Source: Candidatus Peribacteria bacterium RIFCSPHIGHO2_01_FULL_55_13
GTDB lineage: Bacteria > Patescibacteriota > Gracilibacteria > Peribacterales > Peribacteraceae
NCBI GenBank assembly: GCA_001788925.1
Contig: MFXS01000041.1
Location: 1 to 51,314, forward strand
Length of the DNA stretch: 51,314 bases
Reading direction: 5' to 3'
The translations under genes and the position numbers were made by a program. The notes under the pieces were generated by a model. It made no database searches. It was not told the origin of the DNA and was given only the letters and a program-made list of their open reading frames with translations. Of the stretch, positions 41,724 through 45,098 are shown piece after piece (position 1 is the stretch's first letter; each line of letters begins with the position of its first letter).

Positions 41724-42869
41724 CTACGGCAGCAATCCGCGTTCGATGATCTCTTTCTGTTCTTCGACTTTCTCGCGAAGATTTTTCTCTTGTTCAGAAG
41801 AGGTGGATCCTTCAGCCACCGAAGATGCTTCTGCTGCCGCTGCACTCTCCGTACTCGCATTGCTCTGCGTGGAAGCTTCGGCGGAAGAATCTGTACTGGA
41901 GGACATATCAGCACGAGAACTCCTCGATTTCTTTTCTTGTGCAGCGGAGCGACCGTCTCTGTCCTCGTCACTCGCCTCTTCCGAAACATCCTGCGATTGC
42001 ACCGGGGTGCTGCGGGAACGGGCCTTTGCCGAACCGGAAACCTTGATGCCGATTCGGATTTCTCCCTGCACATCCGCGTTCTTGGTGGAAGAATCGGACG
42101 CGGCACGCTTGAGGATGAAGTTCGCCTCGCTGCGCGCCGCATTTCCGCGCTCACGGACAAACTGCCGCAGATGATCCTCCTCAGATTTCTTGGCCCTGTC
42201 CTCCGGCCCTCCAAACGCGGCCGGAGCGACTGCAGGCGGGAAAGACTCTTCGTACTTTTCAAAGGTGGTCGCCAGGACTTCCTGCACGGCGACGTGCGTT
42301 TCCACGGACGGAGGCGGAAGGAGCGTATCCTGAAGCGTCACCACCTGCAGGGAAATCCTGCGTTCGAGCTCCGCACGGTTCTGCGTAGTAAGCTTCCCTC
42401 TTCCGGCAAGCTGTTGCGCCTCGCGCAGGCGTCGTTCTACCTTGCGGATCTGCCAGACGGCCTGCTTCTGCGGCGTGCGGATCATCTTTTCACGAAACGG
42501 TTCCAGAACATCCACTTTAAGAGCATAGAGAGGATCTCCCGGGATCGCGGATTCGGAGGCATAGGCGAGCGCACCGCTCCCAAGCACAATGATAAGGGCG
42601 CTAAGGGCCAGTGCCGGCATCCGCAGCAGCGGAACACTGATGACCGTCCACCACGCCGAAGTCGGCTCGCGGTCCGCCTGCAGGCGCATGGAGGCAATAA
42701 GGGAGCCACGGCCCATGGCTTTCTCTTCGGCGCTGAGGGCGATGGTCGCTGCATCGTTCAACGCTATCCGTGCGAGGAGCGCACTGCGTCCTTCCTCTTT
42801 TTCATGGTCCGTGAGGCGCAATTGCTTGGCCTCGGAGAGGAGCCGTTGGAAGGCGTCGTTGCGGGTCAT
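41724..42869 (-). CDS. DUF5667-like single-TM protein, putative anti-sigma factor
   Basis: ATGA overlap with the ECF sigma gene; TM followed by AIPGDPLYALK and ERRLREA; Ser/Glu-rich tail. Confidence 0.75.
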   Translation of the reverse strand: MTRNDAFQRLLSEAKQLRLTDHEKEEGRSALLARIALNDAATIALSAEEKAMGRGSLIASMRLQADREPTSAWWTVISVPLLRMPALALSALIIVLGSGALAYASESAIPGDPLYALKVDVLEPFREKMIRTPQKQAVWQIRKVERRLREAQQLAGRGKLTTQNRAELERRISLQVVTLQDTLLPPPSVETHVAVQEVLATTFEKYEESFPPAVAPAAFGGPEDRAKKSEEDHLRQFVRERGNAARSEANFILKRAASDSSTKNADVQGEIRIGIKVSGSAKARSRSTPVQSQDVSEEASDEDRDGRSAAQEKKSRSSRADMSSSTDSSAEASTQSNASTESAAAAEASSVAEGSTSSEQEKNLREKVEEQKEIIERGLLP

Positions 42870-43378
42870 TGGGAAATAATCAGGGAACGGAGTTTTTCCA
42901 TGCCGCGGTGAATGCGGACAGAAACAACATTGGGGGAAACCTTGAGAAGGTCGGCGATTTCGCGGGGGAGGAGGCCGTCGACATACCTGAGCACGATGAC
43001 CGTGCGCAGCGGTTCTTCCATTGCATGGAGGACGGTAAGAACCTTTTCGGAATCGATGCGAACGGCGGCGCTATCGTCTTCCTCCGCCGGGGGATCGAAG
43101 CCCTTCTGCTCGCGGAGGTCCTCAAGCGATTCCTCTTTCCGGAGCTTCTTGCGGCGCACGAGGTCGACGATAAGGTTGTTGGCGACGCGATAGAGGAAGG
43201 CGCGGAGATTATCGACTTTCTTTCCCTTGGAGATGTACTCCCATGCACGCAGGAATGTCTCCTGCATCAGCTCGCGCCCCTGCTCCCGGTCGCCGAGGCG
43301 CAGGGCGATGTGCCGGAAGATGGCATCGGCATAATCGTCGTACGCCTGTAGAAATGCTTGTTCAATATTCCGATCCAT
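42866..43378 (-). CDS. ECF RNA polymerase sigma factor
   Basis: AYDDYADAIFR, LMQETFLRAW, RAFLYRVANNLIVD, EIADLL.VS.NVVSVRIHRG. Confidence 0.92.
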   Translation of the reverse strand: MDRNIEQAFLQAYDDYADAIFRHIALRLGDREQGRELMQETFLRAWEYISKGKKVDNLRAFLYRVANNLIVDLVRRKKLRKEESLEDLREQKGFDPPAEEDDSAAVRIDSEKVLTVLHAMEEPLRTVIVLRYVDGLLPREIADLLKVSPNVVSVRIHRGMEKLRSLIISQ

Positions 43379-43390
43379 GCCGAACAGTGT

Positions 43391-43420
43391 AGATGACGAA
43401 GGAGCATATGCCCTCTTACG
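43391..43420 (-). promoter_or_regulatory. Putative autoregulatory ECF promoter cGTAAGAGGG...TTCGTCat
   Basis: Directly upstream of the sigma ATG at 43378. Confidence 0.72.
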
Positions 43421-43476
43421 GAGCAGGTTTTCCAGATATTGCATAAATACAATAAATATTGTATAATATCAATAAG

Positions 43477-43911
43477 ATGTCAAAATCACACACTATTACC
43501 GATTTCTCACTCCTCCAGATCATCGTCGCTGGATCCGTTTTGATGGGCCTCATTCTTATGGGACTCGGGGGCATCGGGCATCTTCTCGGAGATCTCACCG
43601 GACAGGGCCAGACGATTTCCACTGCAGCCGAGGTTGCTGAAGGAGAACTCACGGCAACGATTGCTGCTGCTCCCCACGCCGCTGCACCGATTCTCCAGGG
43701 AACTTCAACCGGCGCCGGCATCATGATTATTGTGGGAATGATGCTGATTCTCTGCGGGCTGATGCTGCATGCATTGCTGCTTCTGAGGATGGGTACCGAT
43801 AGACAGGTTCCGGTTCACGTTCGCGAACGCGATCGGAAAACCGTGGAGCGTGGTGCAAGAATGCAAAGAGCGATTGAAGTGTTTTGGGTCGAGCAGGAGA
43901 TCCGCCTTTAA
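43477..43911 (+). CDS. Two-TM hypothetical membrane protein
   Basis: Promoter TTGCAT-17-TATAAT (43439-43467) lies 9 nt before ATG 43477. Confidence 0.7.
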   Translation: MSKSHTITDFSLLQIIVAGSVLMGLILMGLGGIGHLLGDLTGQGQTISTAAEVAEGELTATIAAAPHAAAPILQGTSTGAGIMIIVGMMLILCGLMLHALLLLRMGTDRQVPVHVRERDRKTVERGARMQRAIEVFWVEQEIRL

Positions 43912-43920
43912 GGACAGCAG

Positions 43921-43970
43921 GGTCCCCTCTCCCATTGGGAGAGGGACAGGGAGAGGGGGTCGGGAGGAGG
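43921..43970. repeat. C/G-run palindromic repeat
   Basis: CCCTCTCCCA-t-TGGGAGAGGG plus purine tail; same family as 20941-21087. Confidence 0.65.
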
Positions 43971-44024
43971 AAAGAAGCTGCACACGCGTGACCTGAGTCG
44001 ACATCACCAATGAATGCTTGCAAT

Positions 44025-44056
44025 AAAAAACGACCAGCATTGCTGCCGGCCGTTTT
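44025..44056 (-). terminator. Intrinsic terminator after the Gly/Cys peptide
   Basis: ACGGCCGGC-agcaat-GCTGGTCGT plus TTTTT. Confidence 0.75.
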
Positions 44057-44081
44057 CGTGGATGATACAGAGAGCGGATTA

Positions 44082-44150
44082 CTATCCGCCGCAGCCGCAT
44101 CCTCCGTCTTTGAGGCCGCAGGATCCGCAGCCACCACCGAAGGAAATCAT
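44082..44150 (-). CDS. 22-aa Gly/Cys-rich peptide MISFGGGCGSCGLKDGGCGCGG (not in ORF track)
   Basis: Own promoter and terminator, tandem TAG TAA stops, varied synonymous Gly codons. Confidence 0.65.
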   Translation of the reverse strand: MISFGGGCGSCGLKDGGCGCGG

Positions 44151-44181
44151 TGAGTAGGGTGGTAAAAAATAGAACGACCAC

Positions 44182-44210
44182 AGTGTAATCGATACGAGAA
44201 TGTTTGTCTA
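44182..44210 (-). promoter_or_regulatory. sigma70-type promoter TAGACA-17-TACACT
   Basis: Read on the minus strand upstream of the peptide ORF. Confidence 0.65.
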
Positions 44211-44234
44211 GCACTCTCATGGTGAGAGTGCTAA
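44208..44234. promoter_or_regulatory. CIRCE element (HrcA operator)
   Basis: CTAGCACTC-N9-GAGTGCTAA, a 17/18 match to TTAGCACTC-N9-GAGTGCTAA with exact spacing. Confidence 0.85.
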
Positions 44235-44240
44235 TTCCCC

Positions 44241-45098
44241 CTAAAACGTATGTTTCTTCCCCAATGCATCGCGATGATACTTCCCAAACTCCTCAATCTT
44301 CACACACGCATCGTTTTTCACCACAGGACCTTCTGTACACAGACGGATGCCGAGAGGATCCACCACGCAGTTGCCGCAGATGCCGTACCCACATTTCATG
44401 TAACGCTCCAAAGAAAGCTGCGAAGGAATTTTGTACTTTGCCGTTAGTTCTGAGACGGCCTTGAGCATCATTTCGGGTCCGCATGCAAAGACTTGATCGA
44501 TGGGATCAGTATTTTTCATTTTTCCTTTTTCATTTTTCCTTTTCTTCTGGACCGCCTCCAGCATCTTCTCCAACTGCTGCACGTTAAACCCCTTGAATCC
44601 TTCCGAGCCGTCGTTGGTTGCGACGTGGAGTGATACATGCGGAAGGGATTCCAGTTCTTTCAGATACAGGAGATGTTCCTTGCTGCGCGCACCAACAAAG
44701 ACTTCCAGCGTGCAACCGTGGTGCACGGTTTCTGCGGCGACGAAGTACATGGGTGCCGCGCCGTAGCCGCCTGCGACGAGAGCGATGTGCTGGCCGGGTT
44801 TCCACTCATAGCAGGTGCCGAAAGGGCCGCGAAGACCTACGAGATCGCCCACCGAGCAGCGAGCGAGCGCTTCGGACATCGGACCCACGGCGAAGAACGT
44901 GATCTTGGTCTCCGCGCCGTTATCGAACGCGACGCTGAACGGCTTTTCATCGACACCGGGAAGCCAGAGCATCACAAATTGCCCCGGTCGCGCGCCGAGC
45001 GATCCGTCAAATGTGAAGGTGCGGACCATGTCGGTCTCCTGTTGTATCGCTTTAATGCGATAGGTCTTGGGAAGCCGGGACTGGAGCGGGATCGCCAT
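44241..45098 (-). CDS. pyrK: Dihydroorotate dehydrogenase electron-transfer subunit
   Basis: PGQFVML, EKPFS, RGPFG, AGGYG, ACGP, 2Fe-2S motif MKCGYGICGNC...LCTEGPV. Confidence 0.93.
   Translation of the reverse strand: MAIPLQSRLPKTYRIKAIQQETDMVRTFTFDGSLGARPGQFVMLWLPGVDEKPFSVAFDNGAETKITFFAVGPMSEALARCSVGDLVGLRGPFGTCYEWKPGQHIALVAGGYGAAPMYFVAAETVHHGCTLEVFVGARSKEHLLYLKELESLPHVSLHVATNDGSEGFKGFNVQQLEKMLEAVQKKRKNEKGKMKNTDPIDQVFACGPEMMLKAVSELTAKYKIPSQLSLERYMKCGYGICGNCVVDPLGIRLCTEGPVVKNDACVKIEEFGKYHRDALGKKHTF

Follow-up and report, generated by a model that had tools for sequence, protein, structure and literature searches.

The window analysed here is a stretch of 51,314 nucleotides (positions 1-51,314 of contig MFXS01000041.1) from Candidatus Peribacteria bacterium RIFCSPHIGHO2_01_FULL_55_13, and it carries a small unit built around a micro-gene for a glycine- and cysteine-rich peptide. 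The open reading frame (ORF) lies on the minus strand at 44079..44150 and consists of 22 codons (44150-44085) followed by the double stop TAG TAA; it is kept as a Gly/Cys ORF in relatives. Its predicted product has 22 residues, among them 10 Gly and 4 Cys, the latter spaced as CxxC-x6-CxC. Among the 15,919 ATG-initiated ORFs of 8-40 codons in this 1.17-Mb genome, no other combines a Gly+Cys content of 50% or more with three or more Cys. Upstream stands a controlling inverted repeat of chaperone expression (CIRCE), the operator of the heat-shock repressor HrcA, and downstream an intrinsic terminator on the same strand (44021..44056; 13-bp stem with arms at 44027-44039 and 44044-44056, 4-nt loop, then a minus-strand T run). 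No chaperone gene adjoins the unit, whose neighbours are a pyrK-type gene and an ORF for a protein with two transmembrane segments (two-TM protein). The original prediction, made from the DNA letters, had described the peptide with its Cys spacing and double stop, the terminator and the missing chaperone neighbour; all are there, and translation of 44150-44085 returns the identical peptide.

The operator occupies 44208..44234, is assigned to neither strand and agrees with the HrcA-site consensus, a 9-nt inverted repeat around a 9-nt spacer, at 17 of 18 positions. It is the single match to that consensus in the window (one mismatch), and 100 shuffled sequences gave none, even with three mismatches allowed. 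The palindrome also extends beyond the consensus, with 11-nt arms that are 100% complementary. As predicted, it overlaps a minus-strand promoter, TAGACA-17-TACACT: the -35 hexamer (44205..44210) shares the final 3 nt of the CIRCE, and the -10 hexamer TACACT (44182..44187) lies 17 nt from it. This promoter scores 9/12, a quality that is in itself not rare (2 sites found against 1.1 expected). Among nine aligned relatives, the -35 hexamer is kept in eight and the TA...T positions of the -10 hexamer are invariant in all. The sequences of relatives also reveal a second layout, in which a -35-like hexamer sits inside the CIRCE. From a putative transcription start, the 5' leader is predicted to span 44151..44176 on the minus strand; it is pyrimidine-rich and lacks a Shine-Dalgarno sequence.

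Both the repressor and its usual targets are present alongside this operator. The genome (1.17 Mb in 43 contigs, 54.6% G+C, 97.7% complete) encodes HrcA (PF01628, 71-72 bits, above the cut-off, contig C32), whose presence the original prediction had asked to be checked. Genome-wide, six CIRCE-like sites occur at up to four mismatches. Besides the one at the micro-gene, three stand directly upstream of groES-groEL, dnaK and the gene for a ClpB-type ATPase, in keeping with the earlier statement that CIRCE is the HrcA operator of groESL and dnaK; a weak one precedes hrcA itself, and the sixth, located within an ORF at the end of a contig, is possibly a chance match. The micro-gene site ties with the groES site for the best match in the genome. 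Four features of an HrcA-CIRCE regulon were found: the inverted repeat, its place over a promoter, an hrcA gene in the genome and further copies of the operator ahead of canonical chaperone genes.

The leaders of the heat-shock genes resemble that of the micro-ORF in being strongly C/U-rich and free of a Shine-Dalgarno sequence. A Shine-Dalgarno-like 4-mer precedes only 39 of 285 well-defined starts in the genome, and G is depleted from -4 to -12 upstream of starts. Because the Shine-Dalgarno signal is absent genome-wide, its absence here is no argument against translation of the micro-ORF. As a separate observation, the CIRCE in the dnaK-obg intergenic region (G000:C17:14500-14700) is flanked on each side by runs of GAGAATT-like heptamers that are inverted relative to each other, and similar runs lie near the CIRCE in L073. 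Full-text literature searching found no micropeptide in an HrcA regulon and nothing that joined 'HrcA' with 'Candidate Phyla Radiation' (CPR), and the accessible part of the Peribacteria genome paper does not mention heat shock, chaperones or HrcA (PMC4736985).

The unit is widely conserved. Used as a BLAST query, the 261-nt segment was recovered from five of six same-genus genomes at 73-89% identity. In each of them the CIRCE comes with the same promoter, a similar leader, a Gly/Cys ORF that begins with ATG, and a terminator. For the wider family Peribacteraceae, a covariance model of the segment from CIRCE to ATG, based on sequence only, matched 112 of 151 sampled genomes and 71 of 84 genera. 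The 30 best model loci all contained the micro-ORF, 27 of them recognized by script (CIRCE with up to three mismatches) and three by reading or at four mismatches, and it was present in four of five further family loci and in 36 of 40 further regions. A coding-motif search added two more units. As an independent route, a coding-motif pattern run over 200 genomes gave five sites, all of which fell at CIRCE units, and the control gave no matches. In total, 75 units were read in 74 of 200 family genomes, covering 44 of 84 genera, and since the remaining genomes were not read these are lower bounds. One genome (G113) has two copies. Family DNA occurs in groundwater and soil metagenome runs, and no RNA run is listed as containing the window's DNA. 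DNA contigs from four metagenome runs show no differences within the ORF, and one of them has two differences in the promoter spacer; as they probably come from the same populations, nothing is concluded from them.

Across 72 tabulated units, the peptides range from 9 to 32 residues (median 14), are 42.8% Gly and 24.1% Cys, and contain two to seven Cys each. The C-terminal residue is Cys in 52 of the 72. Of 71 relatives, 65 use TAA as the stop codon, the CIRCE-to-ATG distance is 41-62 nt, and in 67 of 72 units a hairpin with a T run lies no more than 90 nt away. Consecutive cysteines are adjacent in 53 cases and separated by one residue in 57 and by two in 31, which together make up 141 of 194 gaps. 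The commonest 6-mer is G-G-C-G-C-G, found in 15 of 74 peptides. Several peptides are internal repeats of one module (e.g. L084), and a module of about 9-11 residues appears in one, two or three tandem copies when close relatives are compared (L264 in G033 with L266 in G632, L084 in G145 and L356 in G772). The expectation that gene callers would miss such ORFs held, as six of six peptides looked up exactly in a collection of 15 billion proteins were absent. Of nine looked up in all, one was present, a 42-residue member from family f16 labelled 'hypothetical protein', for which no relatives were found among 5.8 billion clusters.

The cassette also behaves as a unit of its own. In the window it lies 6 nt past the stop of the pyrK-type gene (44241..45098, minus strand), which by its Pfam match encodes an electron-transfer subunit of dihydroorotate dehydrogenase B and is itself preceded by pyrD; the two-TM protein (150 aa, no known family) is encoded convergently at 43459..43911 on the plus strand. 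Both are synteny partners outside the unit. Among 33 three-kb loci of the family, 20 have pyrK next to the unit on its upstream side and in the same direction, and 17 have the two-TM gene next to it downstream, in convergent orientation. The synteny downstream of pyrK that the original prediction proposed to look for is therefore real in 20 of 33 loci, but it is not general: either neighbour can be missing, and the cassette stands without pyrK in, for example, L030, L031, L033, L036, L039 and L044. In 26 of 32 loci the gene past the terminator is on the opposite strand. In one genome (G006; L007, contig C3, 11,155-14,237), the segment from CIRCE to terminator is inverted by itself; the genes around it, the two-TM gene on one side and pyrK and pyrD on the other, keep the order seen in the window. 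By its organization across these genomes, the cassette is a self-contained, autonomous gene, and the earlier view of it as a stand-alone gene is borne out by its own terminator and its inversion as a unit. The three conditions that would have refuted the original prediction did not hold: hrcA is present, the reading frame is kept in relatives and the palindrome is more than a pyrK terminator.

Whether the conserved product is a peptide or an RNA is addressed by several signals. Base composition has a sharp period of three in register with the ATG, with G at 49% of first, 70% of second and 5% of third codon positions. GGG is avoided, accounting for 2.5% of Gly codons in the micro-ORFs and 17% in the long ORFs of the genome. 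Two genome pairs have identical peptides that differ by one synonymous change each, and the closest relative of the window differs from it by two synonymous changes plus a stop-to-His extension. Differences in length stay in frame over 9-32 codons, with the stop directly after the Gly/Cys tract, so the frame-disrupting changes that would have counted against a coding role did not appear. We considered an RNA thermometer or other structured RNA, in which a CCACC in the leader pairs with the Gly codons, and rejected it: compared with synonymously recoded versions in 72 units, folding has a mean z of -0.01 (Wilcoxon p 0.75). An Rfam scan of 43000-45000 reached at best 24.7 bits against a threshold of 44, so the region fits no known small RNA family. 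Given the periodicity, the avoidance of GGG, the synonymous changes, the null result of recoding and the lack of an Rfam fit, we conclude from these comparisons that the ORF is translated, although its RNA may have a role besides. Together with the operator, this leaves us confident that the micro-gene is real, translated and controlled by HrcA.

Does the gene extend beyond Peribacteraceae? An exact CIRCE-plus-TAGACA pattern, scanned against one genome per bacterial or archaeal species, gave at least 120 loci. Among the matches listed, 17 carry the micro-ORF, 16 of them labelled Candidatus Peribacteria, Peribacteraceae or Peregrinibacteria. The remaining 103 belong to Actinomycetota, Chlamydiota, Alphaproteobacteria, Saccharibacteria, other Peregrinibacteria and further groups; there the pattern stands before hrcA, dnaJ, dnaK, groES and similar genes or before no recognizable ORF, and never before a micro-ORF. 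The peptides themselves reach further. A chance, weak BLAST match pointed to a 25-codon Gly/Cys ORF behind a consensus-like promoter, with no CIRCE, in a genome of sister family f10 (G033), and we followed it with BLAST inside f10 and with a G-G-C-G-C-G codon pattern over 351 genomes of the class, reading 70 loci. ATG-initiated Gly/Cys micro-ORFs of 8-49 codons emerged in 27 genomes from five sister families (14 of 31 f10 genomes, five of f8, three of f16, four of f19 and one of f163). Outside the class, inspection of the result table showed the pattern to be no commoner than its reversed control, and none of 23 loci read had a micro-ORF. A six-frame profile search with the peptide alignment over 301 class genomes was too insensitive to bear on distribution, recovering three of 40 family genomes and G033 and missing the window's own genome. 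The f19 members (L279-L282) form a subfamily of 25-27 residues with an acidic N-terminal stretch of 14-16 residues; another ORF starts about 30 nt past their stop, with no obvious terminator between, and may be co-transcribed. The picture that these gene comparisons suggest, a class-wide peptide family whose link to CIRCE was read in one family, goes beyond the earlier description.

The function of the peptides must be approached through their composition. None of 19 peptides had a meaningful match in Pfam or NCBIfam, so none joins a described metallothionein family; phmmer searches of the PDB with two peptides gave no matches, the ESM Atlas yielded no usable match and the literature nothing on such a peptide. 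In composition they nevertheless resemble the metallothionein class, with low mass and a 24% share of Cys in CC, CxC and CxxC arrangements. A second lead is the commonest 6-mer, G-G-C-G-C-G, which is also the C-terminus of proteins with the PF01521 domain, the HesB/IscA or A-type carriers of iron-sulfur (Fe-S) clusters, in the sister families f18 (five proteins scanned) and f4 (one). The f4 protein (L276), which has the plain motif, aligns with the solved structures of IscA, SufA and HI1723 such that the motif falls on their NPN..CGCG. The two cysteines of CGCG in A-type carriers are cluster ligands. The f18 carriers (L328-L333) end in Gly/Cys tails of 15-35 residues that resemble the micropeptides, and by sequence they are natural fusions of a carrier domain with a micropeptide-like segment. 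The window peptide itself, at 22 residues, has no HesB/IscA fold domain and has only the Cys motif in common with these carriers.

The window's genome encodes SufB/D, metal transport proteins with HMA domains and a DnaJ with a normal zinc finger. At E<=0.1, PF01521 turned up neither here nor in five further genomes with the micropeptide, two of them single-contig. The glutathione-related family PF04262 was not found in the genome either, which says nothing about glutathione, since the model matches only one of 14 control genomes. An unusually Cys-rich proteome has been remarked upon for Peribacteria in the portion of the genome paper available (PMC4736985). The tripeptide Gly-Cys-Gly stabilizes centres of the mononuclear, [2Fe-2S] and [4Fe-4S] types; it also binds Zn and Fe, and Cys tripeptides bind thiophilic metals, according to the part of a study accessible to us (PMC9126146). 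Work by Scintilla et al. in 2016 reportedly dealt with duplications of the tripeptide.

From these leads, we propose that the micro-gene encodes an HrcA-repressed, stress-induced thiolate peptide for metals or Fe-S clusters; this is the best overall explanation available, and we consider it about as probable as all others combined. HrcA bound to the CIRCE over the -35 hexamer would keep the promoter shut. Proteotoxic or heat stress would inactivate HrcA, allowing a transcript of about 150 nt to be made and its 22-codon ORF translated. The product could then act through cysteine thiolates clustered as CC, CxC and CxxC between flexible glycines, capturing, buffering or handing on thiophilic metal ions and Fe-S clusters from damaged proteins, and it might double as a small thiol reductant. 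That the peptide binds metal or Fe-S through thiolates is, taken by itself, an evenly balanced proposition. Fe-S handling is the most specific lead within it, and as the particular cargo we regard Fe-S clusters as a tentative choice, less likely than not. More speculative still is a view of the peptides as natural 'protoferredoxin-like' molecules, free-standing copies of the cluster-binding CGCG tail found in A-type carriers. Such peptides, acting singly or in small oligomers, would carry iron or Fe-S clusters for shuttling or salvage; their use would be class-wide in these CPR bacteria, and in Peribacteraceae the heat-shock repressor would have come to control them, so that clusters lost from unfolding proteins are rescued.

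Several observations weigh against parts of this proposal. The peptide sequence evolves fast, and composition and Cys spacing alone are kept. In seven of eight alignable pairs with differing peptides, non-synonymous codon changes equal or outnumber synonymous ones. The bias towards synonymous changes that the original prediction proposed to look for is seen between close relatives; the many non-synonymous changes of more distant pairs indicate that selection keeps composition and Cys spacing and not sequence. Some members have just two Cys in nine residues, too few to hold a cluster alone. The idea that the micropeptide replaces a lost A-type carrier is weak: in this genome a fusion of DUF1858 with a divergent HesB/IscA-like segment (G000:C4:25246-25827; L368) scores 15.5 bits to PF01521, below the cut-off, is related to an f18 carrier by tblastn (E 1.5e-6) and has CxC and CGC at its C-terminus. 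Because this protein is present, we make no claim of replacement.

Other points bear on control by HrcA. The near-universal linkage of CIRCE to the micro-ORF is partly built into the search, since the model used to find most family units contains the CIRCE. In one family genome, the micro-ORF (L299; G057:C4, ~81,700-81,870) lies behind a consensus TTGACA/TATAAT promoter whose 18-nt spacer is a perfect 18-bp palindrome unrelated to CIRCE and standing in its place, which suggests, as far as sequence can, an operator swap to a different repressor. Among the sister-family genomes, 26 of 27 have no CIRCE at the micro-ORF, their best upstream match having 7-10 mismatches; the exception is an f8 genome (G728) with a CIRCE-like site of four mismatches upstream of a 49-codon ORF. 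Heat-shock control is therefore not intrinsic to the role of the peptide. The CIRCE-less ORFs imply that the peptide gene predates the family, and its wiring to HrcA looks like a family-level acquisition, a putative innovation of Peribacteraceae.

Four other explanations deserve consideration, each less likely than a thiolate peptide. In the first, which the original prediction had listed among its options, the ribosomally made product is a precursor that is later modified into a mature peptide or cofactor, for instance one that forms thiazoles as microcin B17 does, so that the thiols are substrates and not ligands. The Gly/Cys/Ser-rich cores of azole peptides such as microcin B17 do resemble the micropeptides in composition, one of 19 peptides had a weak NCBIfam match to class III lanthipeptides (E 0.65, 10 bits), and the f19 subfamily offers an acidic N-terminal stretch with a gene directly downstream. 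Such a precursor would need a leader and a maturase. Most members have no leader, with the first Cys at residues 2-9; the genome, like its relatives only about 1.2 Mb in size, has no YcaO domain (other maturase classes were not searched); and the unit ends in its own terminator, with neighbours, pyrK and the two-TM protein, that are not maturases and vary between loci. Because leader, YcaO and a conserved maturase neighbour are all missing, we disfavour a modified-peptide precursor and judge it unlikely.

Comparably unlikely is a small regulator of proteostasis that acts on DnaK, ClpB, GroEL, HrcA (as feedback) or the two-TM protein and binds no metal. Membership in one regulon with the chaperones would suit such a role, as would the convergent two-TM gene found at about half of the family loci. 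In 26 genomes of the five sister families, however, the peptides are encoded with no CIRCE at the gene, and a low-complexity, fast-evolving sequence of variable length is unlike a specific protein ligand. We also considered the two-TM protein as a universal partner of the micropeptide and rejected it, since its gene lies beside the micro-ORF at none of 14 sister-family loci.

A third possibility makes the product an RNA: a stress-induced, small G-rich regulatory or dual-function RNA that pairs with C/U-rich leaders, the ORF being incidental. The short transcript with its strong terminator folds well as a whole (z = -4.5), the heat-shock leaders are C/U-rich where the ORF is G-rich, and the peptide sequence is poorly conserved. 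We nonetheless find a regulatory RNA quite improbable, as the 3-base periodicity is strong and tied to a fixed ATG, the stop directly follows the Gly/Cys tract however long it is, synonymous recoding leaves leader-ORF folding unweakened and no Rfam family comes near its threshold. Finally, a leader peptide whose Gly and Cys codons sense tRNA charging or cysteine, or a palindrome serving merely as the pyrK terminator, might be read from an ORF rich in two codon families so close behind pyrK, but we exclude both roles for practical purposes, because the terminator follows the ORF directly and the gene behind it is mostly convergent, the cassette also occurs without pyrK and is inverted relative to it in G006, and no T run follows the CIRCE palindrome.

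A few features of the surroundings are recorded here for completeness. The two-TM proteins form a family of 130-166 aa that matches nothing in Pfam; its members have SGQG-like and LHxAAP-like motifs in common, and one membrane segment lies at the C-terminus. Beyond the two-TM gene lies a gene for an extracytoplasmic function (ECF) sigma factor (42866-43444, minus strand), which shares 4 nt with an ORF of 381 aa that belongs to no Pfam family (region 41724-43444, minus strand) and is likely its anti-sigma partner. Just past the two-TM gene, at 43924-43958, lies a C/T-rich palindrome whose 10-nt arms pair at every position (100% complementary). Depth of metagenome contigs rises there to 4-13 times the flanking level, palindromes of a similar sort are found after the units in L006 and L037, and the element is probably a dispersed repeat of the repetitive extragenic palindromic (REP) type. 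Inside pyrK, a low-complexity T/C-rich stretch at 44498-44558, Lys/Glu-rich in the PyrK frame, reaches a contig depth of up to ~2000 in four runs, presumably by cross-mapping of simple sequence.

The micro-gene adds a 22-codon gene that is not a chaperone to the HrcA regulon, one of the best-studied stress circuits in bacteria. It also belongs to a conserved family of Gly/Cys peptides of 8-49 residues in one class of the CPR, which annotation pipelines hardly ever pick up. Being so short, the peptides can be synthesized, and whether they bind Zn, Cu, Fe or Fe-S clusters is directly testable. Should they bind, the Gly-Cys-Gly peptides that serve as models of primordial Fe-S proteins would have a counterpart in nature, and genome-reduced bacteria would be meeting metal and thiol stress with a minimal tool; were the protoferredoxin-like view to hold as well, no smaller carrier of Fe-S clusters or metals made by ribosomes would be known.

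How does the micropeptide compare with systems already described? It differs from precursors of the microcin B17 type in that it comes without a leader peptide, without YcaO in the genome and without neighbouring maturases. The closest analogue in sequence is the Cys motif of A-type carriers (IscA, SufA, ErpA; PF01521), a G-G-C-G-C-G/CGCG motif identical to that of the micropeptide, which lacks the carrier domain; the likeness is one of motif and not a demonstrated descent from the 3' end of a carrier gene. Metallothioneins and phytochelatins are likewise small, and the micropeptides, Gly-rich with 15-45% Cys as CC, CxC and CxxC and modular duplication, are of the same general make. They have no sequence relationship with metallothioneins by Pfam (none of 19) or PDB, and phytochelatins are made by enzymes whereas the micropeptides are ribosomal. 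To our knowledge, most of the micropeptides are shorter than any known metallothionein. Expression of metallothioneins can be linked to stress, as with yeast CUP1 and HSF.

Another parallel is with the Gly-Cys-Gly model peptides and 'protoferredoxin', which consist of repeats of Gly-Cys-Gly units as the micropeptides do. The models are synthetic and were studied in vitro; the micropeptides are natural and gene-encoded. In control, the parallel is with the HrcA-CIRCE regulon of Bacillus, Chlamydia and many others, with which the window's genome shares the inverted-repeat operator over a promoter, hrcA, and sites at groES-groEL and dnaK. What sets the present unit apart is its cargo: where that regulon carries a chaperone or protease, here the operator stands before a 22-codon Gly/Cys ORF.

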